Numbered from the stretch's first letter, positions 7,318-59,560 are shown. The stretch: 64,000 bases of DNA from Armatimonadota bacterium (GCA_034722055.1 JAYENL010000314.1:26641-90640), one strand, 5' to 3'. Program-made: numbers and translations. Notes: generated from the letters alone by a model not told the origin.

Positions 7318-7357
7318 GAGCTGACGCGGCTGGGTCCGGGCGGAAGGAGGTTCGGCG

Positions 7358-7510: not shown

Positions 7511-7523
7511 GAGAGTGATACCG

Positions 7524-8741: not shown

Positions 8742-9151
8742 GGATGGCGGAGAGCAGAGTCGTGCTGCACTTCCCGAAGCACCTCCTCGACCAGCCGGTG
8801 ACCTCCACGACCGTGGAGCGCTTCAACCTGCACTTCAACATCCTGCGCGCCGACATCACCCAGGACCAGGAGGGCCTGATGGTCCTGGGCCTGGTTGGCG
8901 AGCCCGAGAACATCGAGGGCGCCATCGAGTTCATGCGCGAGCAGGGCGTGCGCGTCCAGCCGCTGGAGCAGGATGTGGTTCGCGACGATGACCGATGCAC
9001 CCACTGCGGCGCCTGCGTCGTGGTATGCCCCACCGATGCTCTGGCCATGGACCCCGACAGCCGCCAGGTCAGCTTCGATGCCGACAAGTGCGTGGCGTGC
9101 GGGATATGCGTGCCGGTCTGCCCGCCGCGGGCGATGTCGATACACTTCTGA
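8738..9151 (+). CDS. NIL-domain / 2x[4Fe-4S] ferredoxin (MA1822-like partner of the DUF39 protein)
   Basis: An N-terminal NIL-like domain of about 75 aa is followed by two CxxCxxCxxxCP motifs ('CTHCGACVVVCP', 'CVACGICVPVCP'). A GTG/ATG start overlaps the upstream stop. Confidence 0.6.
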   Translation: MRMAESRVVLHFPKHLLDQPVTSTTVERFNLHFNILRADITQDQEGLMVLGLVGEPENIEGAIEFMREQGVRVQPLEQDVVRDDDRCTHCGACVVVCPTDALAMDPDSRQVSFDADKCVACGICVPVCPPRAMSIHF

Positions 9152-15627: not shown

Positions 15628-15814
15628 TCTGGAGGGCCCGCGCCCCAGCGAAGGTGTTCCATCCTGGCAGGCCGGCGGCCCCCTGGCCCACTGCATCTTC
15701 GGGAAGCCGGCGCCCCCGCCGGCCCACTCCATCCTTGGGAAGCCGGCGCCCCGGCCGGCCCACTCCATGTTTGGGAAGCCGGCGCCCCCGCCGGCTTGTG
15801 GCGCACAGCGCCAC
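15628..15814 (-). repeat. Intergenic repeat element R1, copy c (three tandem units of about 33 bp, inverted orientation)
   Basis: Three 'GGGAAGCCGGCGCCCCCGCCGGCCCACTCCATCCTT' units. The end 'CCCCCGCCGGCTTGTGGCGC' is an exact reverse complement of the R1a 5' end. It lies in a 900-bp gene-free gap. Confidence 0.8.
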
Positions 15815-15922
15815 TGTGGTGATGGCGGGCAGGTGATGCCGAAGCGGCGGGGAATAGCGGTACGGCCTCCATCTGCGGTCCCGTCGCCGACCGAGGCGGG
15901 GCTGGCATGGGAGGGAGCGACC

Positions 15923-17230
15923 GTGAGGCGGACTGCAGTGGCCATCGCAGCGGCACTGATGCTCATCCCGGCGGCGCGTGCGCAGGAGGCGGGCGAACAG
16001 CCCGACCAGCCTGCCGAGCGGATTCTGGCTACCGTTGACGGCGAGGAGATCACCGACCGCGAGCTGTGGTGGTACATGGAGCAGACCGCGGGCGGGAAGC
16101 TTCTCGACGAGCTCATCCTGCGCCACCTGCTGGCCGCCGAGGCAGAGGGGCAGGGCGTGAAGGTGGGCACTCCGGAGGTGGATGAGGCTGTCGCCGCGCT
16201 GAGGGCCGAGCACGGCTCCGAGGATACCTTCGAGGCCTGGCTGCGCGAGACGGGGCAGACCATGAAGGGCCTGCGCATGCAACTGCAGCAGGAGCTGCTC
16301 ATCGACAAGCTCCTGGAGCAGCGCATGGGGCTGACTGAGGAGGGCATCCGGGAGTATTACGAGGCCCATCGGGAGGAGTTCACCGAGCCATCGCGGGTGC
16401 ATCTGATGGACATCGTGACCCTGTCGCTGGTGGAGGCCTTTGAGGCCCGGGAGCGACTGGCCGCGGGCGAGCAGTTCGCCGCGGTGGCGCGGGAGATGTC
16501 ACACGATCCCACCGCCGAGCAGGGCGGGGACCGCGGCTGGATCACGCCCGACGACGTCCTCAATGAGCACGTGGCGGACGTGGTCTTCGCCATGGCTGAG
16601 GGGGAGATCTCCGACCCAGTGGACTGCGAGGACCACTGGCACGTGTTCTGGGTGAAGGAGGTCGAACGAGGCCGGGCTCTGTCCCTGGAGGAGGCTCGGC
16701 CACAGGTGGAGGAGCGCATCATTAAGCTGCGAGGCATCTCCCGGGAGCTGTTTCTGACGCTGCTGCGCCGGCGGGCGGAGATCGACGTGCGGTGGGAGGC
16801 GCACGACTACCTGAAGCAGGTCTACGCCGACCTGCGTATGATCAAGGTCGTTGTTGACGGCCAGCGCCTGGAGCTGCCGACGGCGCCGGTGATGGTGGCG
16901 GGGTCACGCCTGCTCGTCCCGGCCAAGGACCTGCTGGAGGCTCTGGGCGCCGAGGTGAGCTGGAACGCGGAGGCCGGGGTCCTGGAGGCAACCAGAGACG
17001 GCACGAGGGTCACGCTGGTGAGGGGCCTGCCGGTGATGGGCGTCGGCGACGAGGAGATCGAGATGAAGGAGCCGCCGCAGATCCGCGAGGGGGTGCTGAT
17101 GATCGCGCCGCGGGCGCCGGTGCAGGCGCTGGGGGGCAGCCTCCTGTGGAACCGGACGGAGAACACGTTGTATGTAGAGTCCCACCCCGAGGCGGAACAG
17201 GCCCCGGAGGGCGCCGAGACTGCCGGGTAG
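15923..17230 (+). CDS. Secreted SurA-like peptidyl-prolyl isomerase (PpiC/parvulin domain) fused to a copper-amine-oxidase-N-like stalk domain
   Basis: Signal peptide 'RRTAVAIAAALMLIPAARAQEA', then a SurA-N-like helical region. The parvulin block is 'FAMAEGEISDPVDCEDHWHVFWVKE'. The C-terminal 'VVVDGQRLELPTAPVMVAGSRLLVPAKDLLEALGAEVSW' is a Cu_amine_oxidN1-type motif. A GTG start follows a GGGAGGGA SD. The track ORF starts earlier, inside the repeat. Confidence 0.65.
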   Translation: MRRTAVAIAAALMLIPAARAQEAGEQPDQPAERILATVDGEEITDRELWWYMEQTAGGKLLDELILRHLLAAEAEGQGVKVGTPEVDEAVAALRAEHGSEDTFEAWLRETGQTMKGLRMQLQQELLIDKLLEQRMGLTEEGIREYYEAHREEFTEPSRVHLMDIVTLSLVEAFEARERLAAGEQFAAVAREMSHDPTAEQGGDRGWITPDDVLNEHVADVVFAMAEGEISDPVDCEDHWHVFWVKEVERGRALSLEEARPQVEERIIKLRGISRELFLTLLRRRAEIDVRWEAHDYLKQVYADLRMIKVVVDGQRLELPTAPVMVAGSRLLVPAKDLLEALGAEVSWNAEAGVLEATRDGTRVTLVRGLPVMGVGDEEIEMKEPPQIREGVLMIAPRAPVQALGGSLLWNRTENTLYVESHPEAEQAPEGAETAG

Positions 17231-30152: not shown

Positions 30153-32144
30153 TCACTCCACCACCAGCGAGGGTGCCGGGAAGAAGTAGTGCACCACGAT
30201 CCAGAACGTCAGGATGACGCTCACGCCCAGGATGAGGCCGAATGCCAGCGGTCGAAGGCGATTGAAGGCCCGGAAGCCGCCGAACTTGACCACGGTGACC
30301 TTCCACAGCCAGCCGATGAAGATCGACATCCAGTAGCGGCTGATAGGCCAGCCCAGCCAGGCCACGTATCCCAGCGGATGCAGCGGCCACCACACGAACC
30401 GCCGGCGCAGGGCCACCAGGCTCCAGGTGAGGCCCGCACCCAGCGCCAGGCCGATCCAGTCCGCCAGGCCCATCGCCGAGGGCGTCTGCAGATACCGGGC
30501 CAGGCGGGTGGTGGTGTTCAGACCCGAGCCGCTGGGCCACCAGCCCAGCTTGGGCACACTCCAGTTGTAGATAACATACAGCGACGTCACATGGCTGCAG
30601 AGAATGGCCACAATGACCGCCAGCATGGCCACCAGGACGATCTGGGCGCGATGGGCCTTCATCTCCGCGCCGACCTTCAGCCCCTGCGCCACCGCCGCCA
30701 TGTTCATGGTGGCAGTGGAGCGGATCTGCGTCCAGCTCGTGGCGGTCATCAGCGCGATGTTGTGTGCTCCCACGCGCTCGGTGCCGGCGATCTCGAAGAT
30801 GGCCTCGTTGAGCCGGAAGGGGCTGGAGTAGATGAACATGCCGGCCTCGCAGACCACGCGCGCCACGACCATCCCCACCAGCGGGAAGGCGGCATACTGC
30901 ACGATGGCCCACAGCGTGTCCATGCCGACGTATGAGCACCACCACACGATGAAGGCGAAGGCGCCCAAGAACCCCAGCACGGAGAGCCGGTAGGGCTCAT
31001 CCGCGTCAGCCGCCTCCGGCCTGCGGCGGACCGTGCCGAAGGCGACGCCCACGGCCTTGCGGAGGTGGTCGCGGGCCGACCACAGCAGGGCCCCGGCCAG
31101 AACCGCATAGCCCCCGATGGTCTGGAACTCGAAGAACTGGTAGTGGCCCACATCCACGCCCACAGCGATGCGCACGAACTGCTGGATTCGCTGGAACCAC
31201 CAGAAGAACCACAGCGAGAAGCCCACCTCGGCGGTGAGAAGGTAGGCGATGCCGACCATCTCGGGGTAGAGGTGCCTGGGGATGTTGTTGAAGGCCGACC
31301 ACGGGCCGCCGAGGGTGGTGCGGATGGTTTCCTGCAACTGGATGTCGGGGATGGCCGGCCAGTAGGCGTGCAGGCCCTTGATGGAGTAGAGGATGCACGC
31401 GGAGGCGAAGGCGATCCACATCAGGGGGCTGTGCATCAGCTCCGCGGCGCCGCTCGGCTCCCCCTCCACCACCTCCACCGGCACCTGCACCAGCGGGTAC
31501 AGCAGACGCTCCTCCCGCTCCCACCGATGCGCCAGGGCGGTCATGAAGCACAGGACCATCCAGTAGATGGCGAAGAAGAACGGCGTCCACACCAGCAGCG
31601 GGGTCACCCAGGCCCGCCAGGGGACGCTCCGGCCCGGCGGAAGGCCCTCGTAGGCCCAGCGGACGGCCGCGGCCTCCGGGGCGGTGTCAGGCACGAGCAT
31701 GGGGTTGAGGTCCTCGAGATACAGCTCCGGCGGCGCGATGTCGGGCGTGGCGTAGTACACGATGCCCAGCAGGTTCAGGTAGACGTGCTGGGCGAACTCC
31801 TGGCCGGCGATGGCTCCCACCACCAGGAGCATCAGGAAGACCAGCAGCAACTCCCGAGCATTGAGCCGCAGTCGCCTCGTGACGCGGCCGATCAGCCGCA
31901 TGGCGGCGTTGGCGCCGATCAGGGCGAGGAGGATGCACACGGCGCCGCGCGGGAGGTAGCCGGTGCCGATGATCTCGTAGCGGAGGAAGACCCCGAAGCA
32001 GCCCACCACGGTGAAGAAGACCACCATGATGAGGCCCACGATGACGGCGCGGGCGGTGACCCCGGAGAGCCCCGCCCGCTCCTCGGCCTCCGCAACCACC
32101 TGCTCATCGGTGCTGGAGGGGGTATCCAACGCCAGCGCGCTCAC
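30153..32144 (-). CDS. Large polytopic membrane protein of unknown function (about 14 TM helices), upstream of the lyase in the same operon
   Basis: 663 aa and highly hydrophobic throughout. The 30-nt gap to the lyase start implies co-transcription. Confidence 0.6.
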   Translation of the reverse strand: MSALALDTPSSTDEQVVAEAEERAGLSGVTARAVIVGLIMVVFFTVVGCFGVFLRYEIIGTGYLPRGAVCILLALIGANAAMRLIGRVTRRLRLNARELLLVFLMLLVVGAIAGQEFAQHVYLNLLGIVYYATPDIAPPELYLEDLNPMLVPDTAPEAAAVRWAYEGLPPGRSVPWRAWVTPLLVWTPFFFAIYWMVLCFMTALAHRWEREERLLYPLVQVPVEVVEGEPSGAAELMHSPLMWIAFASACILYSIKGLHAYWPAIPDIQLQETIRTTLGGPWSAFNNIPRHLYPEMVGIAYLLTAEVGFSLWFFWWFQRIQQFVRIAVGVDVGHYQFFEFQTIGGYAVLAGALLWSARDHLRKAVGVAFGTVRRRPEAADADEPYRLSVLGFLGAFAFIVWWCSYVGMDTLWAIVQYAAFPLVGMVVARVVCEAGMFIYSSPFRLNEAIFEIAGTERVGAHNIALMTATSWTQIRSTATMNMAAVAQGLKVGAEMKAHRAQIVLVAMLAVIVAILCSHVTSLYVIYNWSVPKLGWWPSGSGLNTTTRLARYLQTPSAMGLADWIGLALGAGLTWSLVALRRRFVWWPLHPLGYVAWLGWPISRYWMSIFIGWLWKVTVVKFGGFRAFNRLRPLAFGLILGVSVILTFWIVVHYFFPAPSLVVE

Positions 32145-32300
32145 TCCCCATTCGGATCTCTCGGGTCCATGCCCAGGGGCGGGAGCCCTATCATTCCGTC
32201 CTCACCGGCCGCACACCTGCCGGCACCGAAGGGGGGAGCGGCGGCGGCGGCGAATACTTCACTGTCGGCATCACTGGGATTTCGCGGAGAAGCGACTCTC

Positions 32301-35177
32301 ATGGGGCGTCTGCTCGACCGCAGTGTGCCGGAGCGCCTTGGCCTGGCCGTAGGGCTGAGCCTCTTCCTGCTCGTGCTGCTGTTGGATGGCCTGGGGCGAC
32401 TTCAGGGCCTGGAGAACACGCTCCTGGGCGTGCGCTACGAGCTCCGTGGCCCCCGCGATCCCGCCGCGGAGGTCGTGCTGATCCCGTTTGAGGAGGGCAG
32501 CATTTTCGCCGGGGAGGGCGCTCTGCCATGGTCGCGGCAGGGCCTGGCGGGAGTGGTGGCGCGGCTGGATCAGGCCGGCGCTGCCGTCATCGGCCTGGAC
32601 CTGCCGGCGCTGGCCGGGGGGGTCATCCCCCCGCTGAGACCGGGCGAGGATCGGATGCTGGCGGCGGCGATGAAGGCGCATGGGGGGGTGGTGCTGCCCA
32701 TGGTCATCCGGGAGACGGCCTCCGCGGCGCCGCCATCAGACGCCGCGAACCGCTTCGCGCTGGGGCCGGGGAGGCTACCCAGGCCCGCGCACCTCCGGCC
32801 GGGCCATCTGGCGGTGCCCTCCAGGACTCTGTGCGAGGCGGCCGCGGGGCTGGGCACCACGAACATCTACCCCGACCTCGACGGCTCCACCATCGAGGCG
32901 CCTCTGGCGGCCTCCTGGGGGAGCACCATCTACCCGTCATTCTGGCTGGAGCTGGTGCGGGTGCTGGAGGGGCTCCCACCCGGCGCCGCCGAGATGGCCG
33001 AGGGCGAGGTTCGCGTGGGCCCCCGGAGCTACGCCGTCGATCCCCAGGCGGAGATCCTGATCAACTACGTGGGCAAGTACCGTCAGTTCCCGCGCCTTCC
33101 CTACCACTCCGCGACCGAGATGCCTCTGGCGAACCTTCGCAGCGTTGTCGAGGGGAGGATCGTGCTGGTAGGCAACGACCTGGCGGGCGTGACATCCATG
33201 CTGCGCACGCCGACCTCGCCGCTGATGCCGGGCGTTGAGATCGCCGCCACCGTGACGGAGAATCTGGCGGCGGCCACCATGCTCCGGCGGGCGCCGGCCT
33301 GGCTGGTGTGGGTGGCCACGCTGGTGCTGGTGCTGTGCGCGGGATGGATGACGGCCCGGGCGTCGCCGCTGGGCGGGGTGTTCATGACCCTGATACTGCT
33401 GGGCGTTACGGCGGTCGCGGGTCTAGCGCTGTTCATGGTGGGCGTCTACGTGGCGGTCGTCCCGGCCTTGCTGGCCGTGGCCCTGACGGGCGGGACTCTC
33501 ACGGTCACTTCTGCCGCGGAGGCCGAGCGCCACCGGACAGAGGCGGAGGGGCGGCTGCAGTCGCGGCTGCAGGCCATCGCCGGCATCGGCCGCCTGGTGA
33601 ACTCCAGCCTGGACGACGAGCAGCTTCTCGTGGAGATCCTCCGCTGGGCGGAGAGCGAGATCAACGCCGAGGCCTGCTCGCTGCTTCTCATGGAGCCGGA
33701 CGGTGAGACGCTGCGGTTTGAGGTGGCGCTGGGCGAGAAGGGGCACATGCTCAAGGACATCCGCCTCCGCGTTGGCGAGGGCCTGGCCGGGACGGCAGCA
33801 GCTACCCGCGAGCCCATCGTGGCCGACGACGTGACAGGCGATGAGCGCTGGAGCCGGGATGTGGCCTACGCCATCGACTACGAGACCGAGTCCATCGCCT
33901 GCGTGCCCATGGTGCTGCGGGACGAGGTCCTGGGCGTGATCGAGGTCATCAACAAGCGGGGCGGGAGGTTCGGCGACTACGACATCCAGCTTCTGCAGGT
34001 GATCGCCCACCAGTCGGCGCTGTTCCTGGAGAACGCGCGTCTGTATCGGGCGCTGTCGGAGAAGGTGGACCTGGCCAACGAGGAGCTGCGGCAGGCCAAC
34101 GAGCGCCTGCAGTTCGAGATGGCGCGCATCGCCACTCTGGTGGACGAGATGGGTGATGCGGTGGTGGCCACCGACGAGGCCGACCAAGTGGTGATCTTCA
34201 ACAACGCTGCGGAGCGCATCTTCGGCATCAAGGAGAGCGAGGCTCGCGGTCGGCAGGCGGTCACCGTCTTCGATCATCCTGAGCTGGCCAGGCTCTTCGG
34301 CATGCCCCTGTCGCCGCACGGTGGCTCCTACGAGACGGAGATCACCCTCGACGGGGCTCAGCCGCTGGTGGTGCGGGCCCAGATCGCGCTTATCGAGCAG
34401 CCCGGTCAGGCGGAGGTGGGCAAGTGCGCGGTGTTCAGCGACATCACGCACCTCAAAGAGCTGGACCGCATGAAGACCGACCTCATCTCGTTCGTCTCCC
34501 ACGAGCTGAAGAACCCCATCTCGTCGCTGCAGGGGGCTTGCCGCCTGCTGCACGACCGCCTGGACGTGGAGGACCCCCGCACCGGAAGGCTGCTGGAGAT
34601 CGCCTCCCGACAGGGGCGCCGGATGCAGCACCTGGTGCAGGGCTTCCTGGACCTGTCCCGGATCGAGGCCGGGCACCCGCTGGAGCTCAACTGGGAAGAG
34701 GTGACTGACCTTCGGGGGCTGATCGGGGAGGTGATGTCCTTGATCCGCGGCATGGGCTCGGAGCACCACCTGCACGCTGAGGTGGATGAGGACCTGCCGG
34801 CCTTCTGGGCCGACCGTGAGAAGCTGGAGGCAGTCCTCATCAACCTCATTGACAACGCGGTCAAATACTCACCGGACGGCGGCGATGTCACGGTCCGGGC
34901 CCTGCTGCGCGATGAGCGGGTGATGATTGAGGTGGAGGACGAGGGAGTGGGGATCCGGGAGGAGGACCTTCCCAAGCTCTTCAAGAGCTTCCAGCGGATC
35001 CACGACTCCACCTACGGGCGGGTGAGCGGCACCGGCGTGGGACTCTACATCTGCAAGCACATCATTGAGGCGCATGGGGGAGACATCACGGTGGAGAGCA
35101 CCTGGGGGGAGGGATCCATCTTCCGCCTGCACATCCCCCTGCGCGAGGCGCCGCCGGAGGGCGCGGCGGACCGATGA
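32301..35177 (+). CDS. CHASE2-TM-GAF-PAS sensor histidine kinase
   Basis: ATG at 32301. N-terminal TM helix plus an extracytoplasmic CHASE2-like domain, then 3-4 TM helices ('WLVWVATLVLVLCAGW...'). A GAF domain ('LLLMEPDGETLRFEVALGE...GLAGTAAAT') and a PAS-like segment follow. HisKA H-box 'FVSHELKNPISSLQG' and HATPase_c N/G boxes ('LINLIDNAVKYS', 'GTGVGLYICK') are present. Confidence 0.85.
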   Translation: MGRLLDRSVPERLGLAVGLSLFLLVLLLDGLGRLQGLENTLLGVRYELRGPRDPAAEVVLIPFEEGSIFAGEGALPWSRQGLAGVVARLDQAGAAVIGLDLPALAGGVIPPLRPGEDRMLAAAMKAHGGVVLPMVIRETASAAPPSDAANRFALGPGRLPRPAHLRPGHLAVPSRTLCEAAAGLGTTNIYPDLDGSTIEAPLAASWGSTIYPSFWLELVRVLEGLPPGAAEMAEGEVRVGPRSYAVDPQAEILINYVGKYRQFPRLPYHSATEMPLANLRSVVEGRIVLVGNDLAGVTSMLRTPTSPLMPGVEIAATVTENLAAATMLRRAPAWLVWVATLVLVLCAGWMTARASPLGGVFMTLILLGVTAVAGLALFMVGVYVAVVPALLAVALTGGTLTVTSAAEAERHRTEAEGRLQSRLQAIAGIGRLVNSSLDDEQLLVEILRWAESEINAEACSLLLMEPDGETLRFEVALGEKGHMLKDIRLRVGEGLAGTAAATREPIVADDVTGDERWSRDVAYAIDYETESIACVPMVLRDEVLGVIEVINKRGGRFGDYDIQLLQVIAHQSALFLENARLYRALSEKVDLANEELRQANERLQFEMARIATLVDEMGDAVVATDEADQVVIFNNAAERIFGIKESEARGRQAVTVFDHPELARLFGMPLSPHGGSYETEITLDGAQPLVVRAQIALIEQPGQAEVGKCAVFSDITHLKELDRMKTDLISFVSHELKNPISSLQGACRLLHDRLDVEDPRTGRLLEIASRQGRRMQHLVQGFLDLSRIEAGHPLELNWEEVTDLRGLIGEVMSLIRGMGSEHHLHAEVDEDLPAFWADREKLEAVLINLIDNAVKYSPDGGDVTVRALLRDERVMIEVEDEGVGIREEDLPKLFKSFQRIHDSTYGRVSGTGVGLYICKHIIEAHGGDITVESTWGEGSIFRLHIPLREAPPEGAADR

Positions 35178-35383
35178 GAGATCACCGGCTGCGGGAGGGG
35201 GACGTGGTGCGCCTGAAGAAGCCCCATCCCTGTGGGGCCAATGCCTGGGAGGTCATGCGGCTGGGCATGGACATCAAGCTCCGGTGCACCGGCTGCGGAC
35301 ACATCATACGCATGGCGCGGTCGCGCCTGGAACGTCGCATTCGGGGGTACGTGGAAGACGACGGGGACGGTGGGGAGGCGTGA
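35174..35383 (+). CDS. DUF951 family small protein
   Basis: Its 'DVVRLKKPHPCGANAWEVMRLGMDIKLRCTGCGH' block matches the DUF951 consensus from memory (database confirmation still needed). An ATGA start/stop overlap with the kinase gene. Confidence 0.65.
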   Translation: MRDHRLREGDVVRLKKPHPCGANAWEVMRLGMDIKLRCTGCGHIIRMARSRLERRIRGYVEDDGDGGEA

Positions 35384-35853
35384 AGGAGGCGCAGTTCTTG
35401 CGCCAGACCTTCGCCAGGCTGCCCACGGCCGATTGTGAGGGCTGCCACGGCTGCGCCTCGCGCTGTGTGGGCAATCTTCGCATCACGCGGACCGAGTTCG
35501 AGGCCATTGGCGACTACCTCGGTGGCGGGATGTACTTCCCCGCCGCTCGGACCAACGCGCAGATGGTGGTGCCGTGCGAGTTCAGCGAGCCGGATGGGCC
35601 GCACTGTGTCATCTACCCGGTGCGACCGCTGATCTGTCGCCTCTTCGGGATAGTGCCGTGGCTGCCGTGCCCGCTCGGGCGGGCCCTGCCGACGGTCCCC
35701 GACGCGGCGGAGATCATGCAGCAGTATCAGCAGTTCGAGCGCCACAGCTTCCGGCAGTGGCTGCGCTGCGGCCCATCGCGCGGGACCGTCCTGGCGCCGG
35801 ATGCAGCGACACGCACAGGAAGGATGCAGACATCGAGACATGGCAACAGTTGA
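35380..35853 (+). CDS. Cysteine-cluster protein (YkgJ/UPF0153-like putative Fe-S or Zn-binding protein)
   Basis: GTG start overlapping the DUF951 stop. 'CEGCHGCASRC' plus a downstream 'CEF...C...C' cysteine cluster. Low-similarity call. Confidence 0.4.
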   Translation: MKEAQFLRQTFARLPTADCEGCHGCASRCVGNLRITRTEFEAIGDYLGGGMYFPAARTNAQMVVPCEFSEPDGPHCVIYPVRPLICRLFGIVPWLPCPLGRALPTVPDAAEIMQQYQQFERHSFRQWLRCGPSRGTVLAPDAATRTGRMQTSRHGNS

Positions 35854-36283
35854 GAGCATGGTGCAGATCGACGCTTCCGTTGACCGCGTGTATGAGATCG
35901 CCCGCGACATCGAGGCCTTCCCGGAGTTCATGGATGACGTGGTTGAGGTGGAGATCCTGGAGCAGACCCCGGAGCGGCAGGTGAGCCGCTGGGTGGGGCT
36001 GATCAAGGAGTTCAATCGCACCATCGAGTGGACCGAGGAGGACCTCTGGGACGCCGAGGAGCGGAGCTGTCGCTTCTGCATGCTGGAGGGCGACTTCACC
36101 GCCTACAGCGGCATCTGGCTCTTCGAGGAGGTTGACGGCGGGACGGTGGCGAACCTCACCGTGGAATACGAGTACGATGTCCCGCTGATCGGTCCGCTGA
36201 TCAAGAAGCTCCTGCACCGCAAGGTTCAGGAGAACTGTGATAACATGCTCGAGGCCATCAAGGACAGGGCCGAGAGCGAGTGA
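35840..36283 (+). CDS. SRPBCC-superfamily protein (polyketide cyclase/dehydrase-like, START/Bet v1 fold)
   Basis: 147 aa, 'VDRVYEIARDIEAFPEFM...'. Its length and hydrophobic periodicity are typical of PF03364/PF10604. Confidence 0.55.
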   Translation: MATVESMVQIDASVDRVYEIARDIEAFPEFMDDVVEVEILEQTPERQVSRWVGLIKEFNRTIEWTEEDLWDAEERSCRFCMLEGDFTAYSGIWLFEEVDGGTVANLTVEYEYDVPLIGPLIKKLLHRKVQENCDNMLEAIKDRAESE

Positions 36284-36427
36284 GTCGTGGACTGCTCCCG
36301 GCCGGAGCATCGTGATCGCCGGCGCAGTGTTGTGTCGGCCGCAGCTTGAGCGCGGGGTGCGGTTGTGATATACTGCGCCGGAGGCTGCATCGGATCCGGC
36401 CGGGCGCATCGAAAGGTGAGGTGCGAG

Positions 36428-37333
36428 ATGCAGATTCACCGCAACTATCGCACTGGGTTTGCAGTCATCGTCTCCGTGCTGTGCTGTCTTCTGGTGGTGG
36501 GCGTTGCGGACGCGCGCGAGGTGCAGCTTGCGGGCATCCGTCTCGGCCAGCACGCCGTGAACCTGCTGGACATCTACGGGCAGCCCATGGGCATCGCCAC
36601 CGGCCAGGGCCAGGCCTTCGCCGGTGGGGGGGCCGGCGCCGGCATGGGCGCCGGAATGGGCATGGGCGCTGAGATGCCTGGAGCGGCCATGGGCGCTGAG
36701 ATGCCAGGGATGGGCCCCGGGATGGGCCCCGGCATGGGTATGGAGCCGGGTATGGGCGCGATGCCGGCCGGACCTGAGGCCGGCATGGCCCCGGAGGCCG
36801 GGATGATGGGGCCCGGCGAGTTCCCGGGAGCCGAGATGGGCGCGCCCGGTGCCGGGCCGGCGGTCGGCGCTGCAGCCGCGGGCGCCGGGGTCCAGCGCGG
36901 CGCCTACCCCACGTGGGCCCTCCCGGTGTGGGTGGACCTGGGCTCGAACGAGATCCAGTGGCTGTATCGCGTGCGAGGCGTGGTGCTGGGCTTCGTGCTG
37001 GATCGCGACGGCTACATCAACTCCATTGCCATTGCCGGCGAGGAGTGTGACTTCGCCCGCACCAGCCTGTGGCAGCCACATCAGTACGTGAAGCTCGGCG
37101 ACACCTACAAGCATGTGATCTACCGTTACGGCTGGCCGGACGAGACCCTGACCTACTTCTCGCAGGGGCAGGGCGAAGTGGGGACGGGCGGCGGGCCGGT
37201 CAGCGTTACGTTCGGCGGCACGGTGCGCGAGTTCTCCCGCGACTCCATCCTGCGCTACACCGAGCACAATAACGTGGAGTTCACCTTCCACGATATGAAG
37301 TGTGTCCGCATCCACATCTGGACCCACGAGTGA
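36428..37333 (+). CDS. Secreted protein with a Met/Gly/Pro-rich low-complexity region and a C-terminal globular domain (unknown function)
   Basis: ATG 36428 follows an 'AAAGGTGAGG' SD. Signal peptide 'MQIHRNYRTGFAVIVSVLCCLLVVGVADA'. Residues about 70-150 read 'GMGAGMGMGAEMPGAAMGAEMPGMGPGMGPGMGMEPGMGAMP...', encoded by nucleotide-level tandem repeats at 36640-36850. Confidence 0.6.
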   Translation: MQIHRNYRTGFAVIVSVLCCLLVVGVADAREVQLAGIRLGQHAVNLLDIYGQPMGIATGQGQAFAGGGAGAGMGAGMGMGAEMPGAAMGAEMPGMGPGMGPGMGMEPGMGAMPAGPEAGMAPEAGMMGPGEFPGAEMGAPGAGPAVGAAAAGAGVQRGAYPTWALPVWVDLGSNEIQWLYRVRGVVLGFVLDRDGYINSIAIAGEECDFARTSLWQPHQYVKLGDTYKHVIYRYGWPDETLTYFSQGQGEVGTGGGPVSVTFGGTVREFSRDSILRYTEHNNVEFTFHDMKCVRIHIWTHE

Positions 37334-37458
37334 GCGGCGCAGCACGTAGACCGAACAGGCCCCCGGACTCCCGGGGGCCTTTGATTTGGCTATGCACTAC
37401 GTACCTGCTGGACGGCAACGGCGCGGGCGGGCAAGCAAGTCCGCCTCCTCTTGACGCC

Positions 37459-37525
37459 ATGCATTACCCACACCCGGCGCGCTCGCGCGAGTCCCTCGGC
37501 CGCACTGCGCGGCAAAGCGGTTCGC
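37459..37525 (+). repeat. Intergenic repeat R3 module, copy b
   Basis: Matches the reverse complement of 15557-15620. Further similarity, 'GGCACCCTCGCT', extends to about 37640. Confidence 0.7.
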
Positions 37526-37768
37526 AATGTCGTTGCTGACGGCGAGCGGCAGACCGCCGGGATAGAAGCCGCCGCCTGCGCAAGACGGCTGCGCACGCGG
37601 CACCCTCGCTACGCTGGGGCGGCCTCTCAGTGCAACAACAGGCCTGAGCCCCGCCTCCGTCACAGGCCTCGGCCAGGATGTGGCTAATGCAGGGCCGTAC
37701 GGCTGGGCGACGGTAAAACGACAATAGCCGGGCGGGTGAGATCGCTTGCGATCTCCGGAAGGGCGCGC

Positions 37769-37928
37769 TCACTGTTCCGTGGGCGGCGACGGCTCCTGCT
37801 GGCTATCACCTTCGGCGCCTCCGGCGGCCGGGACCCGCGACGCCCGTCCCTGCGAGAGATAGAGGACCAGCAGCAGCATTGCCAGCGCCATGTCGAGGCC
37901 GGTTATGTGTGTCAGCAGATGGTGCATT
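37769..37928 (-). CDS. Possible small hydrophobic protein (52 aa), speculative
   Basis: A perfect SD 'AAGGAG' lies 8 nt upstream of the ATG (37928 on the minus strand). MHHLLTHITGLDMALAMLLLVLYLSQGRASRVPAAGGAEGDSQQEPSPPTEQ. It lies in an otherwise gene-free 800-bp gap. Confidence 0.3.
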
Positions 37929-38079
37929 GGTCTCGCTCCTTCCGCCGAACATCGGTTCGTAGTATACGTGGGCCGCCGACGAGAGTCAAGCCCGAGCGAA
38001 TGTTCGTTCGAAAGGAGTCCGCCATGTGGCGGGGCCGAGGCTACAGATGATGCCGAGGGACTCTGCCATTGCCCTTGAC

Positions 38080-38127
38080 GACACTCCTATAATAGTGTAA
38101 CCTGATGGGCACTCTCATAGGAGTGTC
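38080..38127 (+). promoter_or_regulatory. 11-bp perfect inverted repeat (GACACTCCTAT-N26-ATAGGAGTGTC) within an AT-rich promoter-like island upstream of sat
   Basis: Arms at 38080-38090 and 38117-38127. 'TTGACG' (38075-80) and 'TATAAT' (38088-93) lie within or adjacent, but the hexamer spacing is not canonical. It sits 50-95 nt upstream of the sat start. Confidence 0.45.
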
Positions 38128-38175
38128 ACGTCGCGGGGCTGACGGCCATTGATTGAGGGAGGAAGCACACGCACC

Positions 38176-39330
38176 ATGATCGCACCGCACGGTGGAGAGC
38201 TCGTCAACAGCGTGCTGGAGGGGGAGGCCCTGGAGGAGGCGCGCGCCAGGGCGGCGGAGTTGCCGACGCTGGTGGTGCCGGAGGAGGCCATCAGTGATGT
38301 CCGCAACCTGGCGCGCGGAGTCTTCAGCCCCCTGCAGGGCTTCGTGACACGGGAGCAGTTCCTCGGGATCGTCAACGACGAGCGTCTGCCGGACGGCACC
38401 ATCTTCCCCATCCCCATCTTCCTCACAGTCGATGATCCGGATCAGGTGCAGGGGGGCGGTGAGGTCGCCCTGGTGAGCGAGGCCGACCCGGACACGCCGG
38501 TGGCCCTCATGACGGTGCAGGAGGTCTTCGAGTGGGATAAGTCCGCCGCGGCGGCGGCGGTGTTCGGGACCGACGACATGGCACACCCCGGCGTGGCGGG
38601 CTACCACGCTCGCGGCGACTATATGGTGGGCGGCACGGTGGAGCTGCTGCACAACGGTCGCGGCCCCTTTGCCGAGGTGAACCTCTTCCCGGCGGAGACC
38701 CGGGAGCTGTTCGCCGATCGCCGGTGGCGGACCGTCTGTGCCTTCCAGACCCGGAACGTGCCGCACGTGGGCCACGAGGAGCTGCAGAAGACCGTGCTGG
38801 GGCTGGTTGACGGCCTCATGATCCAGCCGGTCATCGGGAAGAAGAAGACGGGTGACTACCAGGACGAGGTCATCATCGCGGCCTACCAGGCGCTGATCGC
38901 GAGCTACTTCCACCCCGACCACGTGCTGTTGAACATCCTCCCCACCGAGATGCGCTACGCCGGCCCCAGGGAGGCCATCCTGCACGGGATCATGCGCAAG
39001 AACTACGGCTGCACACACATCATCATCGGCCGCGACCACGCCGGCGTGGGGGACTACTACGGCGAAGAGGAGGCCATTGAGAAGTTCGAGGCCATGGCCG
39101 ATGAGCTGGAGATCCAGCCCATCACCATCCGCGGGGACTTCTGGTACTGCCGCACCTGCGGCAGGGTCGCCTCCAGCCGTACCTGCCCCCATGAGGGCGA
39201 GGCGCGCCTGTCGTTCAGCGGGACCGAGATACGGGCGATGATCAGCGAGGGCACACCGCCGCGGCCGGAGGTCATGCGGGCGGAGGTCTTCGAGGTCATC
39301 GAGCAGTTTGACCAGCCGTTCGTGTCGTAG
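38176..39330 (+). CDS. sat: Sulfate adenylyltransferase (ATP sulfurylase)
   Basis: 'MIAPHGGELVN' N-terminus, 'QTRNVPHVGHEEL' (the QTRN...H motif) and 'GRDHAGVGDYYG'. About 385 aa. There is an alternative ATG at 38149. Confidence 0.9.
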   Translation: MIAPHGGELVNSVLEGEALEEARARAAELPTLVVPEEAISDVRNLARGVFSPLQGFVTREQFLGIVNDERLPDGTIFPIPIFLTVDDPDQVQGGGEVALVSEADPDTPVALMTVQEVFEWDKSAAAAAVFGTDDMAHPGVAGYHARGDYMVGGTVELLHNGRGPFAEVNLFPAETRELFADRRWRTVCAFQTRNVPHVGHEELQKTVLGLVDGLMIQPVIGKKKTGDYQDEVIIAAYQALIASYFHPDHVLLNILPTEMRYAGPREAILHGIMRKNYGCTHIIIGRDHAGVGDYYGEEEAIEKFEAMADELEIQPITIRGDFWYCRTCGRVASSRTCPHEGEARLSFSGTEIRAMISEGTPPRPEVMRAEVFEVIEQFDQPFVS

Positions 39331-39358
39331 CCGAATCCGGGCGGACGAGGAGAGCATC

Positions 39359-39916
39359 ATGCAGAGCGGAGTCGTCATCTGGTTCACGGGCATTCCGGCC
39401 TCTGGCAAGTCCACGCTGGCCACGGCGGTGCAGGAGCGGCTGGAGGCCATGGGCCTGCCGGTCGAGAACCTCGACGCCGACGAGGTGCGGGCCAACCTCA
39501 GCCCCAACCTGGGCTACACGGAGGAGGCCCGCGACGAGAACACCAAGCGCCTGGCGTGGTTCGCGCAGAAGCTGGCGGGGTACGGGGCGAACGTGATGAT
39601 CGCGGCGGTGGCCCCCAAGCGCCGCTACCGGGCCCGCGGCCGCCAGTGGTGCGACAGGTTCGTGGAGGTCTACGTGGAGTGCCCGCTGGAGGTGTGCCAG
39701 CAGCGCGATCCCAAGGGCCTCTACGCCCGCGCCGCGCGCGGCGAGGTCAGCGACATCGCCGGCCTGCACCAGCCCTACGAGGCGCCGGAGGCCCCGGAGG
39801 TGCACGTGACGACCTCCGAGTCCACCATCGAGGAGTGCACCGACGCCGTGATGGCCGCGCTGGCGGAGCTGGGCCATCTGTCCCTGGAGCCGGCCATGAG
39901 GCAGGCGAGCGAGTGA
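39359..39916 (+). CDS. cysC: Adenylylsulfate (APS) kinase
   Basis: 'VIWFTGIPASGKSTLA' P-loop at the N-terminus. About 185 aa. ATG 39359 follows an AGGAGA SD. It lies immediately downstream of sat. Confidence 0.9.
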   Translation: MQSGVVIWFTGIPASGKSTLATAVQERLEAMGLPVENLDADEVRANLSPNLGYTEEARDENTKRLAWFAQKLAGYGANVMIAAVAPKRRYRARGRQWCDRFVEVYVECPLEVCQQRDPKGLYARAARGEVSDIAGLHQPYEAPEAPEVHVTTSESTIEECTDAVMAALAELGHLSLEPAMRQASE

Positions 39917-39917
39917 C

Positions 39918-41261
39918 ATGCTTCGCTGGTTCAGGCGCGGACCGCAGCGGAAGCTGGTCATCATCGGCCTCGACGGCGTCCCCCACTCCCTGCTCACGGA
40001 GCTGATGGAGGCCGGTGAGATGCCCACGCTGGCCCAGATGGCGGGGTGCGGCGACCTCCGCCCCGCTCGCTCCACGCAGCCGACCGTCTCCTGCGCGGCG
40101 TGGACGTCCTTCGTCACCGGCGTGAACCCCGGCGTCCACGGCGTCTTCGGCTTCGTGGATCGCCGGCCCGGCTCCTACCAGCAGTACATCACCGGCGCGC
40201 CCCACGTGAAGTCGCCGCAACTGTGGCGGATGGTGGGTGAGCGCGACCACCGCGTCATCATCATGAACGTGCCGGTCACCTCTCCGCCACCGGAGGTCAA
40301 CGGCCTCCTGGTGGGCGGCTTCCTGGCGCCGAAGCTGGAGGGCGCCACCCACCCGCCGGAGCTCGCCACTCGGCTGGAGCGCCTCGGCTACCGCATCGAC
40401 ATCGACCCCTGGCAGGCCCGGCAGTCCCTGGACCTGCTGCTGGAGGACCTCGACGCCACCCTCGCTGGGCGGGTCGCCGGGGCCACGGAGCTGCTCTCGC
40501 GTGAGCGGTGGTCCCTGGCGATGGTGCACATCATGGGGACCGATCGCATCAACCACTTCCTGTGGGCCAAGTGGGATGACAAAGACCCCCAGTACGCCCC
40601 GCGCTTCGTCGAGTACTACTCCAAGGTGGACGCCGCGGTGGCGCAGATCGCGGAGGCGGCGGGCGACGACGCGGAGTTGCTGCTGCTCAGCGACCACGGC
40701 TTCACGCGCACGGTTCACGAGATCAACCTCGACGTGTGGCTGCGGGAGCGCGGCTACCTGAGCGTCCCGGTGTCGGAGGAGGCCGGCATTGGCGACGTGG
40801 ATGAGCGGACGCGCGTCTTCTCGATGACCCCGGGGCGCATCTACGTCAACCTTCGCGGCCGCGAGCCGCAGGGCAGCGTCGAGCCGGGTGAGGAGTATGA
40901 CGCCTTGCGGGCGGAGGTGGCAGCGGAGCTGATGGAGCTGACCGACCCGGACTCAGGCCAGCCGGTGCTGCAGAGCGTGCAGCCGCGGGAGAAGCTGTTC
41001 TCGGGGGCGGCGCTGGAGCAGGCGCCGGACCTGCTGGCGATCCCCCGCGACGGCTACGATCTCAAGAGCGCGCTGGGCGGCGAGGAGCTGTTCACCTCCA
41101 GCCCCATCACCGGTATGCACACCTTCGACGACGCCTTCTGGCTGATCCGCGGCAGGCAGTTCGCGGACGGCACCCCGCGCGTGGAGGACGGCGCCCCAAC
41201 CGCGCTGGCGCTGCTGGAGGAGGAGATCCCCGGGCACATCGAGGGCCGCCCCATGGCATGA
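39918..41261 (+). CDS. Alkaline-phosphatase-superfamily protein (type I phosphodiesterase / nucleotide pyrophosphatase-like, PF01663)
   Basis: Its start overlaps the cysC stop (TGACATG). 'KLVIIGLDGVPHSLL' and 'SDHGF' metal-ligand blocks are typical of the AlkP core. Confidence 0.6.
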   Translation: MLRWFRRGPQRKLVIIGLDGVPHSLLTELMEAGEMPTLAQMAGCGDLRPARSTQPTVSCAAWTSFVTGVNPGVHGVFGFVDRRPGSYQQYITGAPHVKSPQLWRMVGERDHRVIIMNVPVTSPPPEVNGLLVGGFLAPKLEGATHPPELATRLERLGYRIDIDPWQARQSLDLLLEDLDATLAGRVAGATELLSRERWSLAMVHIMGTDRINHFLWAKWDDKDPQYAPRFVEYYSKVDAAVAQIAEAAGDDAELLLLSDHGFTRTVHEINLDVWLRERGYLSVPVSEEAGIGDVDERTRVFSMTPGRIYVNLRGREPQGSVEPGEEYDALRAEVAAELMELTDPDSGQPVLQSVQPREKLFSGAALEQAPDLLAIPRDGYDLKSALGGEELFTSSPITGMHTFDDAFWLIRGRQFADGTPRVEDGAPTALALLEEEIPGHIEGRPMA

Positions 41262-41399
41262 GTCATGGCGAACCGAACGCGCGCGGCCGCGACAGCAACG
41301 GCCGTGGCGTGGCCAGAGACGCGCGCGGTGGCTGCGGTGAAACCTCGCGCGCCGCACGCAGCACCTCACGCCTCCCGCCAACGACTCGCGATGGCCGGG

Positions 41400-41688
41400 A
41401 CGTCCCCGCGCAGGCCATCACCACGTCGGCCGCCCCGTCCTGATCGCTGCTGACCCAGCCCCAGCTCCCCACGCCGGCGGTGCAGTGCTTGACCGCCATG
41501 TCCATGTCCAGCCACTGCGGCTGCTCCTGCTTGCCGGCCACGATGACGTTGACGTACTCGCGGCTGCGCAGGCAGTGGTCGGCCACCGACAGCAGCGTGT
41601 TGGCGTCCGGCGGCAGGTAGATGCGGATGACGTCGGCCTTCTTGTTGACTACGTGGTCGATGAAGGCGTTCGTCAGCGGCCATGGCGG
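41400..41688 (-). pseudogene. Phosphoketolase (xfp) gene remnant, an internal C-terminal fragment of about 95 aa
   Basis: Minus-strand translation '[95 protein letters not shown]' is colinear with the XFP C-terminal domain. A stop lies directly upstream, and a 1-nt frameshift and loss of similarity follow 'GDVP'. No remaining gene body is present. Confidence 0.6.
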
Positions 41689-56102: not shown

Positions 56103-58286
56103 TCAGTCCGAGGCCTCCTCGGCGTCCGCGAGGCTGAAGAGGATCTCCCGCAGCCTCCGCAGTGCCTGCTCCGCCGCGCCGGCATCAGTGTCCTCCGGCG
56201 CGCGCGCCGCGAATCGAGCGCCCACGTACTTCTCGGTGAGCACCGAGAGGTCCTGCGCCACCGCCGGGCGTGCCGCCGTCACGTCCCGCGCGAACTCCCA
56301 GGGCGCATCCGACGGCTCCCGGGCCAGGCCCTCCCCCTCCAGCCACCGCAATGCCTGGCGGTAGGCGTGGAGGATACGCCCCTCAGCGGAGACCCCCGGT
56401 CGCAACGGCCGGATTCTCCACCGGTACCAGCGTCCCCCGACGCCCAGCGCGATCACGACCACCACCAGGCCGATGCCCAGTGCCAGGAGGATGATCCTAT
56501 GGGCGACCGCCCATGCGCCGGCGCTGCCCAGCACCTGGCGAATCTGCCAGGCGGCGCCCCCGGCCTCGCCCTCCTCCTCTTCCGGCTCCTCCGGCTCCGG
56601 CGTGGGGTCGAGGTCGATCCAGCCGGCGCGCGACAGGAAGACCTCCACCCAGGCATGGGCGTCCTGATCGCGGATCTCGTAGACCTGGCGCTGGGGACGG
56701 AACTCGCCGGACGTGAAGCCGGTTACCAGGCGAGTCGGCACGCTTAGGGTCCGGAGGAGGACCGCGGCTGCGGAGGCGAAGTGATTGCAGTAGCCCGTCC
56801 GGCTCTCGAAGAGGAAGTGGTCCACGTAGTCCCTGCCCTCGGGCAGGGGCGGCGCCTCCAGGTCGTACTCGTACTCGGCCTTCACGTAGTTGGTGATGGC
56901 GAGTGCTATGCCGGTCGGGTCCTCCGCCCCGTCCTCCGCCACGATCCGCCGGGCGAGCCGGCGCACACGGTCGGGGAGGCCGTCCGGGAGCTGCAGGGCG
57001 TATTGCATGTCCACGGGTTTCGGAGGCTCGGCGCCGGGAGGCGCCATGACCGCCGCGGGTGAGGCGATAACCCCCCTGTACTTCTCGCCGAGCATGAAGT
57101 GGCCGGTGAACATGACCATGCCGGAGCGGTCGATGCGCATCGAGGGCACGTCTACCTCCAGGTAGCGGGGGCACCACGCCACCGGCAGCGTCCCCAGGAA
57201 GCCGTAGGCGCTGGTGACCTCTACGTCCAGCTCATCGATGACGGCCGGTGACAATCCCATCTCCTCGACGGCCGGGAACTGGTAGCGACCGCCCGCCTCC
57301 GGCCGCAGACGCCGCCACTGGCGCTGGCTCTGCCGCCAGCGGTCGCCCTCGTAGATGTCGTAGGTGCCGGTGCGCATCCTCAGCGGGCCCTCGGCCTTCA
57401 CGATCAGCATGAGGCGGTCGCGCGGCTCCGGAGCGGGGCCGCCCAGTTGCAGCGACCGCTCGGTCATGTGCGGCGGCGGCCCCTCGCGGATCATCAGCCG
57501 CGCCAGCCGCCAGGCGAGCTGCCGGCGCAGCCACCGACCAGCCAGGTTGGAGGGCTCCAGCCGGGCCGCGACCGAGGCCATGATGACCGCTGCGACCGCC
57601 GCGGCAAGCATCAGGGCCAGCCAGGAGTTGACCGTCGGCCGCCACCGTCCGCCTCGAATCCGATCCGACGCCACCCGAGCGTCAACCTCTTCGAGGCGCT
57701 CGGCGGCGTGCTCGCCGGCCAGCATCCCCAGGGTTCCGCCTATGACCACAACCGTCCCCGCTATGGCGGTCGTTGTGGGCACCGACAGGAGCACCAGCAG
57801 CAGCCCCGAGCAGGCCGGGAGCGCCGTCTGAGTGAGGTCCCGCGTGGAGCGCATGGCGAAGGCCCGGAAGGCCATCACCCAGTAGAAGGCCACCACCAGG
57901 AAGCGGTAGCTGAGCACCAGCCTGGAGACGCCGGACGCGCCGCTCAGCCAGCCCATCTTCAGGTGCACGATGCCCAGCGCAACCGCGGCGATGAAGGTAA
58001 TCCAGTTGGGCCAGAAGCGGGGGAGACTCGAGAAGTGCAATCGCCACACGACCGGGAAGGCGGCCGTGATGATCACCGCCAGCTCCACAATGACGAGTAC
58101 GTTGGCGACCAGGGCCGTGGCGGCCAGCAGCGCCCCGTACATGGTCAGCCACCCGGCGAGCATCAGAGCCAGCCAGCGCCGGCGCTCGGCCGGGGTCTCC
58201 GCCGGCGGCCTGTGCGGCACCGGAGTGAAGCGGTGGCGCTCCAGGAAGCCCCAGACGCGGCCCGAGAGGGAGGCGACCGAGGCCAT
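56103..58286 (-). CDS. Transglutaminase-like membrane protein (TgpA-type: DUF3488 TM region, transglutaminase core, DUF4129)
   Basis: Cys-His-Asp core 'GYCNHFASAAAVLLR...AHAWVEVF...DLDPTP'. About 7 N-terminal TM helices and a C-terminal TM plus tail. Confidence 0.75.
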   Translation of the reverse strand: MASVASLSGRVWGFLERHRFTPVPHRPPAETPAERRRWLALMLAGWLTMYGALLAATALVANVLVIVELAVIITAAFPVVWRLHFSSLPRFWPNWITFIAAVALGIVHLKMGWLSGASGVSRLVLSYRFLVVAFYWVMAFRAFAMRSTRDLTQTALPACSGLLLVLLSVPTTTAIAGTVVVIGGTLGMLAGEHAAERLEEVDARVASDRIRGGRWRPTVNSWLALMLAAAVAAVIMASVAARLEPSNLAGRWLRRQLAWRLARLMIREGPPPHMTERSLQLGGPAPEPRDRLMLIVKAEGPLRMRTGTYDIYEGDRWRQSQRQWRRLRPEAGGRYQFPAVEEMGLSPAVIDELDVEVTSAYGFLGTLPVAWCPRYLEVDVPSMRIDRSGMVMFTGHFMLGEKYRGVIASPAAVMAPPGAEPPKPVDMQYALQLPDGLPDRVRRLARRIVAEDGAEDPTGIALAITNYVKAEYEYDLEAPPLPEGRDYVDHFLFESRTGYCNHFASAAAVLLRTLSVPTRLVTGFTSGEFRPQRQVYEIRDQDAHAWVEVFLSRAGWIDLDPTPEPEEPEEEEGEAGGAAWQIRQVLGSAGAWAVAHRIILLALGIGLVVVVIALGVGGRWYRWRIRPLRPGVSAEGRILHAYRQALRWLEGEGLAREPSDAPWEFARDVTAARPAVAQDLSVLTEKYVGARFAARAPEDTDAGAAEQALRRLREILFSLADAEEASD

Positions 58287-59539: not shown

Positions 59540-59560
59540 GATCGACCCTCGCCTGACGGC

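Follow-up and report, generated by a model that had tools for sequence, protein, structure and literature searches.

A long disordered methionine-rich loop in a predicted yfeY/BLIP-like domain of an exported protein restricted to Armatimonadota

The Met-rich loops of the multicopper oxidases CueO (from Escherichia coli and Hafnia) and McoA (from Aquifex) are flexible segments within a folded periplasmic domain, are disordered or invisible in structures and vary in length between orthologues. Met-loops of bacterial metallo-oxidases are flexible omega-loops that act as gatekeepers (PMC9775220), and have been proposed to gate access and to recruit Cu(I) (PMC9775220, PMC12041951). SilE/PcoE and the PcoB N-terminal domain, encoded in sil and pco operons, are exported, disordered and Met-containing Ag/Cu ‘sponges’ that use combined His and Met motifs, as is the rule for the characterised bacterial periplasmic Cu/Ag-binding disordered regions (PMC5008109, PMC12509749). 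The ectodomain of Ctr1, a eukaryotic membrane transporter, carries short Met-only clusters of 3–5 Met (MxM, MxxM and MxMxxM) together with His/ATCUN sites, and its MxMxxM motifs are selective for Cu(I)/Ag(I) (PMC9117721). MrpX of Azospira suillum, a small, stand-alone periplasmic protein with a signal peptide, 20% Met and 44% charged residues, undergoes oxidation by hypochlorite, is restored by YedY/MsrP and is encoded in a yedYZ-mrpX operon under SigF/NrsF control (PMC4436054). Here, we describe a gene at positions 36428–37333 of a 64,000-nucleotide stretch of an Armatimonadota bacterium (GCA_034722055.1, JAYENL010000314.1:26641-90640; the whole stretch is hereafter referred to as the window), which encodes an uncharacterised exported protein, restricted to Armatimonadota, with a long Met-rich loop.

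This loop resembles each of the described systems in part. As in CueO and McoA, it is predicted to be a flexible Met-rich segment within a folded periplasmic domain, but the host differs: in the oxidases it is a cupredoxin fold that holds T1 copper and is encoded by genes of copper-resistance operons, whereas here it is BLIP-like, and neither a metal site nor a copper-related neighbourhood goes with it. The loop is also Gly/Pro/Ala-dominated and three times longer than the 29 residues of the McoA loop. The Met-rich region of CueO also contains His. Disorder, export and Met content are shared with SilE/PcoE and the PcoB N-terminal domain, although the present loop has zero His and its gene has no such neighbours. 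Its Met-only clusters are spaced as in the Ctr1 ectodomain, to which the protein has no homology. Like MrpX, the protein has a signal peptide, is assigned to the periplasm and reaches ~20% Met in the segment concerned, but it is not a small, stand-alone, highly charged peptide and is not encoded in a yedYZ operon under SigF/NrsF control.

The fold class in question has recently been redrawn. ECOD merged the yfeY-like families (CAP_assoc_N, DUF4309 and DUF1131) with the BLIP-like families (BLIP, SmpA_OmlA, DUF3862 and PepSY-like), several of which are enzyme inhibitors (PMC11836899). The group is placed in the ECOD cystatin/monellin H-group, and the BLIP-like families belong to the Pfam clan PepSY (CL0320). 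CAP_assoc_N (4ifa, 4h0a), DUF4309 YjgB (4ygt), DUF1131 YfeY (2qzb) and the BamE group share their fold class with the modelled protein; YfeY and BamE are lipoproteins, which it is not, and unlike it none of the solved yfeY/BLIP-like relatives has a disordered Met-rich insertion of ~100 residues.

Alignment of the homologues divides the protein into four parts: a signal peptide, a conserved 31-residue segment, an unalignable loop and a conserved 143-residue part. Mean identity across homologues is 78% for residues 30–60 and 64% for the C-terminal part, whilst the loop reaches 43% with 37 gap columns on average. In an AlphaFold2 model built from the family alignment (33 sequences; pTM 0.55), residues 30–60 fold with residues 159–301 (pLDDT 82–94), leaving residues 61–157 disordered (pLDDT <50), and it is because of this packing that the Met-rich tract is read as an insertion into a domain. 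The separate C-terminal domain assumed in the earlier note, which had been made from the DNA sequence of the window, is not supported by the model, in which residues 159–301 and 30–60 form one domain. With high confidence in architecture and family assignment taken jointly, the mature protein is predicted to be a single compact yfeY/BLIP-like domain of two BamE-like α/β units, the first of which would be interrupted, directly after its YGQP strand, by an intrinsically disordered loop of 98 residues.

Residues 30–60 (36515–36607, plus strand, as are all features of the gene described here) correspond to the first β-α-β ‘LGxxxxxVxxxYGxP’ unit (REVQLAGIRLGQHAVNLLDIYGQPMGIATG), with pLDDT 84–93, a helix at 43–50 and a strand at 55–58, and pack against the C-terminal part. 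Residues 61–158 (36608–36901) make up the disordered acidic Gly/Ala/Pro/Met loop within the fold, referred to as the Met-loop and delimited by pLDDT, composition and low identity, and residues 159–301 (36902–37330) form the remainder of the domain, with the second ‘KLGDTYKHVIYRYGWPD’ unit, a near-invariant C207 and a second, Gly-rich disordered loop at 244–270. Both units open with the signature hydrophobic-x-(L/I)G-x5-V-x3-(Y/L)G-x-P, found as IRLGQHAVNLLDIYGQP at residues 37–53 and as VKLGDTYKHVIYRYGWP at residues 221–237, in which L, G, G and P are invariant. Cys207 (window 37046–37048) lies in the motif AGE-x-C-(D/N)-(F/Y/W)-AR-T and is 98% conserved; a disulfide was considered, but a candidate partner at position 273 or 292 is present in only ~65% of sequences, which would leave a conserved unpaired thiol in an exported protein. 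Further invariant polar and aromatic residues are E31, R38, H42, D192, R211, D225, R233, Y234, R271, Y277, N282, R294 and the Trp at 163, 168, 178, 215 and 298.

The assignment to the yfeY/BLIP-like group holds, in the model, at the level of the fold and not for any curated sequence family. The helix on an antiparallel sheet, duplicated in tandem, which is characteristic of the solved yfeY-like and BLIP-like members, is present in the model, and sequence identity to these relatives is only 10–18%. The full protein has no match in Pfam at E ≤ 10, and its sole NCBIfam match (E 0.09) is spurious. With 20 loop-deleted homologues as Pfam queries, the best matches were DUF3862 (E 0.075) and DUF2845 (E 0.084), all below the gathering threshold, and none of the curated families DUF4309 (PF14172), DUF1131, CAP_assoc_N, DUF3862, SmpA_OmlA and BLIP scored above it. 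A sequence search of the PDB with the full protein returned only 23fu_L (E 0.003), which was rejected as a low-complexity artefact; the loop-deleted profile gave sub-threshold matches only, one of which aligns the second signature copy to LKIGESYKKIVEKLGEPD of the putative BLIP 3d4e.

The composition of the loop is exceptional within the window. Residues 70–150 hold 16 Met, 26 Gly, 18 Ala, 12 Pro and 7 Glu, and Met accounts for 19.8% of them compared with 2.4% in the other 46 open reading frames (ORFs) of the window (~8-fold; binomial P ~1e-10), none of which exceeds 7 Met per 81 residues. The Met/Gly/Pro-rich region reported earlier is thus real, although the count of more than 20 Met given for these residues was too high. 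The loop is net acidic, with ~8% charged residues, lacks His, Cys, Lys and Trp and is nearly without Arg; its DNA has a GC content of 77–80%. A conserved short motif, GPGEFP (residues 128–133; 36809–36826), lies within it between a Met-dense N-terminal side and a Met-poor Ala/Gly side, and no further Met-rich low-complexity region was found elsewhere in ~200 kb of the window and the homologous loci.

The same composition recurs across the family, in the inserts of 110 homologues and in a separate set of 48 species. Among the 110 homologues the insert is 35–148 aa long (median 91), with a pooled composition of 32% Gly, 20% Ala, 15% Pro, 13% Met and 6.6% Glu and Asp together. Over ~10,000 insert residues His, Lys, Cys and Trp are each at 0.0% and Arg is at 0.4%; the loops of the 48 further species hold a single His. 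The median Met content is 13% even though the loop sequences do not align, and Gly precedes Met in ~60% of cases. Met residues are not randomly spaced: gaps of 2, 3 and 4 residues were observed 228, 242 and 187 times compared with 162, 136 and 112 in shuffled loops (z ~+6 to +10), and adjacent MM is rarer than in the shuffles. This enrichment of MxM, MxxM and MxxxM bears out the proposed resemblance to Cu(I)/Ag(I) ligand motifs and matches Ctr1 (PMC9117721). The motif GPGxFP occurs in 66 of the 110 inserts, or in 84 with a looser pattern, and G130 is nearly invariant; Met accounts for 18% of the residues that precede the motif and for 5% of those that follow.

Met content varies between lineages. 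The Met fraction of the loop ranges from 3% to 30% across the 48 species, and the most Met-rich loops (16–27%) belong to Zipacnadia from anoxic Guaymas sediments, whilst those of one clade (P0118/P0119) are made of Gly, Ala, Pro and Glu with 0–1 Met. Two tandem paralogues directly upstream of dnaG in another genome (L008, GCA_021372855.1, 6993–7895 and 8001–9020) likewise have Gly/Ala/Pro/Glu loops that are essentially free of Met, and have C-terminal tails with proline and arginine. Because the loops of P0118/P0119 and of the L008 paralogues hold 0–1 Met, Met appears dispensable for the family. Outside the main loop, Met/Gly tracts occur at two other sites in the family: the second loop of P0115 has one, as do the C-terminal tails of P0108, P0113 and P0120. 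GC bias as the cause of the composition was ruled out, as the Met fraction correlates weakly with genome GC (r = 0.24) and the enrichment persists in a relative with 53% GC (L007/P0072). These two observations, the rarity of ATG expected in GC-rich DNA, the near absence of Arg and the Met/Gly tracts elsewhere argue that the enrichment is not a mutational by-product. To judge from the aligned homologues, the loop would be a clear case of a composition under selection without conservation of sequence. The acidic, disordered character free of basic residues is therefore family-wide, and Met is a frequent but optional addition.

At the DNA level, the loop is a cryptically repetitive low-complexity region and not a tandem-repeat array. 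Both repeats quoted in the earlier note are present twice, ATGGGCGCTGAGATGCCWGG at 36662 and 36689 and GGGATGGGCCCCGG at 36707 and 36719, with 0 expected by chance in each case; the tandem array it described is not. Tandem Repeats Finder detected only units of 12–18 nt in 2.2–2.7 copies, and a repeat-family search returned families of 2–3 copies with 66–93% identity. The short cryptic repeats, from the repeat finders and exact matches, together span 36635–36738 and comprise a 12-nt unit in 2.2 copies (36635–36661), a 27-nt pair (36653–36706) and a second 12-nt unit in 2.7 copies (36707–36738). Compared with the closest relative (L013), the gene has six indels, all within the loop, of 3 to 12 nt and in frame, whilst differences in the loop flanks are mostly synonymous. 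The gene is 100% identical between the window and three Logan contigs, which come from three sequencing runs and apparently from one population. The suggestion that the region varies in length by slippage thus agrees with the comparison between species (35–148 aa, six indels in the loop) but not with the four identical copies from one population. The loop appears indel-prone over evolutionary time, and because the window and the three contigs are identical over the whole gene, these sequences give no sign of contingency-type hypervariability.

The ORF at 36428–37333 lies exactly where it was first reported, reads through 301 codons plus a stop without internal stops, and has a GC3 of 0.85, as expected of true genes in a window with 69% GC. 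It is a real gene and appears to be monocistronic, flanked by a promoter-like site, a Shine-Dalgarno sequence and a terminator of its own. The candidate promoter, a consensus match only, is σ70-like (TTGAGC-17 nt-TATACT with an extended TG; 36346–36374) and ends 54 nt upstream of the ATG; consensus scanning found three promoter-like sites in 2 kb compared with 0.2 expected. A Shine-Dalgarno-like sequence, AGGTGAGG (36414–36421), was read 6 nt upstream of the ATG, and an intrinsic terminator lies at 37357–37390, with a 10-bp stem (9 G-C pairs), a 4-nt loop and the T-tract TTTGATTTGG.

Secretion, as the earlier note had proposed, is well supported by the N-terminal sequence, which predicts export via Sec and cleavage by signal peptidase I. 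The protein begins with MQIHRNYRTGFAVIVSVLCCLLVVGVADA|REV, which has the n/h/c layout of a signal peptide (residues 1–29; 36428–36514): two Arg in the n-region (R5 and R8), a 15-residue hydrophobic core (11–25) and an A-x-A site with predicted cleavage at VADA|R. The A-x-A directly precedes an invariant (R/K/N)E(V/I)QLAG in all aligned homologues, and it is this conservation, together with the two Arg and the hydrophobic core, on which the assignment is based; AlphaFold2 places a signal-peptide helix at residues 5–27. A lipoprotein was considered and rejected, since there is no lipobox and the Cys residues of the signal peptide vary among homologues. LpxD, a secretin and a SurA-like protein, encoded in related loci and the window, fit a diderm envelope and hence a periplasmic location.

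The family is small, and its sequences indicate restriction to Armatimonadota and vertical inheritance. At least 150 homologues were found in 5.8 billion proteins, the best with 85% identity and all ‘hypothetical’ without a Pfam domain, and the named ones come from Armatimonadota metagenome-assembled genomes (MAGs). In a search of 1.84 billion cluster representatives (50% identity), the C-terminal 144 residues matched no more than 94 clusters. With one genome per species for 185,579 species (GTDB), 57 loci were recovered, all 57 in Armatimonadota, with carriers among the Armatimonadia, Candidatus Zipacnadia and MAGs labelled WS1. A dnaG gene lies within 4 kb in 35 of the 57 loci, the family gene standing directly upstream of dnaG-rpoD in the clades other than that of the window, and a DUF951-SRPBCC neighbourhood is found in 16. 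This distribution, entirely within one phylum and largely beside dnaG-rpoD or DUF951-SRPBCC, is the basis for regarding inheritance as of the housekeeping type; to judge from these sequences, the protein has the distribution of a housekeeping-type envelope protein and not of an accessory gene for resistance. No copper or silver homeostasis genes (copA, cus, cop, pco, multicopper oxidase, HMA or CsoR) and no methionine sulfoxide reductase genes (msrP/msrQ, also known as yedYZ, or msrA/B) were found in the 64-kb window or in the ~8-kb flanks of nine homologous loci.

Upstream in the window lie genes for a CHASE2-GAF-PAS histidine kinase, a DUF951 protein, a CxxCxxCC protein and an SRPBCC protein, a block conserved in the clade of the window. 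This block (30153–36283), in which a divergent DUF6785/DUF6784 membrane protein precedes the kinase and the target gene follows, is kept in three homologous loci (L001, L009 and L013); the kinase stop overlaps the DUF951 start (35174–35177), and the CxxCxxCC and SRPBCC proteins are encoded at 35380–35853 and 35801–36283. Downstream, ~0.8 kb of non-coding DNA (37334–38148), with no GC3-supported ORF, no Rfam match and two promoter-like sites on the minus strand, is followed by sat, cysC and a phosphodiesterase gene (38149–41261), which look like a clade-specific insertion because relatives hold YjbQ or BNR genes at that position. In two distant clades (L003 and L007), a conserved series of genes upstream encodes a PASTA protein, an ECF sigma factor, a lipoprotein and large proteins without annotation, and dnaG, rpoD with a Big_5 insertion and the gene of an nSTAND-PQQ β-propeller protein lie downstream. 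The genes upstream in these two loci were rejected as conserved partners, as they encode unrelated lipoproteins, and a paralogue is found only in L008.

Further afield in the window, a sulfur-amino-acid cluster at 6346–9151 encodes a PALP enzyme, a ferredoxin of the NIL-2x[4Fe-4S] type and HcyBio, which serves sulfur incorporation in homocysteine biosynthesis; counting sat/cysC (38149–39916) as well, Met/Cys supply genes are plentiful in the window, with no established link to the Met-rich protein. A prolyl isomerase of the SurA_N/PPIC type (15767–17230, plus strand) is fused to a Cu_amine_oxidN1 domain, which despite its name is not a copper site. On the minus strand, an operon-like group (56103–60517) encodes a MoxR-type AAA_3 ATPase, a DUF58 protein and a transglutaminase/DUF4129 membrane protein, and a 107-aa ORF (41263–41586), probably a gene fragment or pseudogene, aligns with the phosphoketolase C-terminal model XFP_C over positions 1–46 of 202 only. 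Scanning the window for Rfam families and for tRNAs gave no matches.

The role of the loop can be approached from its place in the fold. In the explanation that is tentatively favoured, whose chance of being right is somewhat below even, the globular part would be a periplasmic protein-binding or inhibitor-type module, as are the characterised members of the fold class, and the loop, its ends held close by the fold, would form an acidic flexible bristle or gating arm over this module, much as the Met-loops of bacterial metallo-oxidases gate the domain that hosts them (PMC9775220). The Met residues would supply soft, flexible thioether contacts, a property that would be selected in most lineages yet dispensable for the core role of the family, and we infer that the protein is not a dedicated copper-resistance component. 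Several points weigh against such a gating loop. No family member has a known partner, ligand or phenotype, and the nearest structural relatives (YjgB, YfeY and CAP_assoc_N) are themselves of unknown function, so that the binding or inhibitor module is an extrapolation from BLIP, TsiN and BamE. Met is almost the sole hydrophobic residue in the loops, with Val, Leu, Ile and Phe each at ~2% or less, and its dominance and 2–4-residue spacing are better explained by thioether chemistry than by a generic bristle. The exit of the loop next to a conserved binding face is conjectural, and the model itself draws on 33 sequences with a pTM of 0.55.

Thioether chemistry is central to two alternatives. 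In the first, the protein would serve in the periplasm as a sponge or chaperone for Cu(I)/Ag(I) and bind soft monovalent ions through the ~16 thioethers of the loop in Met-only MX1-3M sites, with the acidic background free of Lys and Arg drawing cations and the folded domain delivering or anchoring the loop. The enriched MX1-3M spacing and depleted MM of the 110 loops, the predicted export and the Cu(I)/Ag(I) selectivity of Ctr1 motifs (PMC9117721) are consistent with this proposal, as are the Met-rich inserts of CueO and McoA that recruit Cu(I) (PMC12041951, PMC9775220), and a His-free thioether loop would suit anaerobes, in which copper is Cu(I), many carriers being predicted anaerobes (PMC10290634). 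It is weakened by the lack of His, which sets the loop apart from SilE, the PcoB N-terminal domain and CopI, by the unrelated fold, by a genomic context that is neutral with regard to copper and by orthologues whose loop has no Met. The scarcity of free copper in sulfidic sediments, the home of many carriers, also counts against a sponge. The host features of copper binding that were looked for (cupredoxin, the CopC β-barrel, the CusF OB fold and His+Met motifs) are all absent from this yfeY/BLIP-like fold with its 0.0% His in the loops, and synteny of the housekeeping type with vertical, phylum-restricted inheritance would not be expected of a sponge. A loop-only search of the 5.8-billion-protein database for similar tracts returned nothing at E ≤ 10, presumably owing to low-complexity correction. 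The earlier note had suggested a periplasmic metal-binding protein, against which it held that a C-terminal domain of unrelated function, combined with no metal response or binding, would speak. The first half of that combination is what was found, the fold class being one of inhibitor and binding modules unrelated to metal binding. As neither fold nor neighbourhood points to copper handling, metal binding is possible and makes chemical sense, but it is neither confirmed nor favoured by the evidence at hand, and a sponge or chaperone in particular is doubtful. Weaker still, and improbable, is a sacrificial antioxidant of the MrpX type, in which the loop Met would scavenge HOCl and reactive oxygen species (ROS) in the periplasm and be re-reduced by a periplasmic methionine sulfoxide reductase: the local Met density is similar to that of MrpX and a disordered loop would be fully solvent-exposed, but the reductase genes are missing from the vicinity in the window and loci, the loop is sparsely charged and lies inside a folded domain, and the most Met-rich variants occur in Zipacnadia that are predicted strict anaerobes (PMC10290634).

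The remaining alternatives place the cause in the DNA. The loop could be neutral filler, generated by slippage at a permissive hairpin and given its composition by mutational drift, as the variable length, unalignable sequence, short DNA repeats, confinement of indels to the loop and Met content of 0 to 30% might suggest, along with a few distant representatives that seem to be without a strong low-complexity region. Against this, a loop is kept in essentially all full-length members across class-level divergence, and all its indels are in frame; Arg is nearly excluded despite Arg-rich, GC-rich genomes, and Met is 8-fold enriched although GC bias disfavours ATG, with enrichment also in the 53% GC genome. 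The exclusion of basic residues, the conserved internal GPGxFP motif with its polarised Met distribution, and the recurrent, independent gain of Met/Gly tracts at three sites make pure drift unlikely. A contingency-type repeat, in which slipped-strand mispairing would alter copy number within populations and so vary a surface-exposed protein, could draw on the 12-nt and 27-nt direct repeats and the inter-species indels of 3–12 nt. The 2–2.7 copies of imperfect units, the identity of the gene across separate sequencing runs and the in-frame length changes, with which on/off switching is impossible, render this very improbable. The gating loop on a binding module thus stays the favoured, if tentative, explanation. 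A variant that joins it to thioether chemistry, speculative and rather unlikely, is that Cu(I) binding or Met oxidation would compact the elastin-like acidic loop and switch the binding or inhibitor face, making the protein a metal- or redox-gated inhibitor, as opposed to a simple sponge, and an undescribed kind of periplasmic sensor or buffer in mostly anaerobic Armatimonadota.

Both the fold class and Met-rich loops were known already; what is new is their combination in a family without annotation. The present value of the finding is descriptive, in that an unannotated family, absent from Pfam and amounting to ~94 clusters at 50% identity, is placed in the yfeY/BLIP-like group; it solves no open question, and the copper interpretation should stay out of the annotation. 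Should the loop turn out to bind Cu(I) or to react to oxidation, Met-only disordered loops would be a portable module that also occurs outside copper enzymes, and the function of a conserved envelope protein specific to Armatimonadota, a phylum with hardly any cultured members, would for the first time become accessible.

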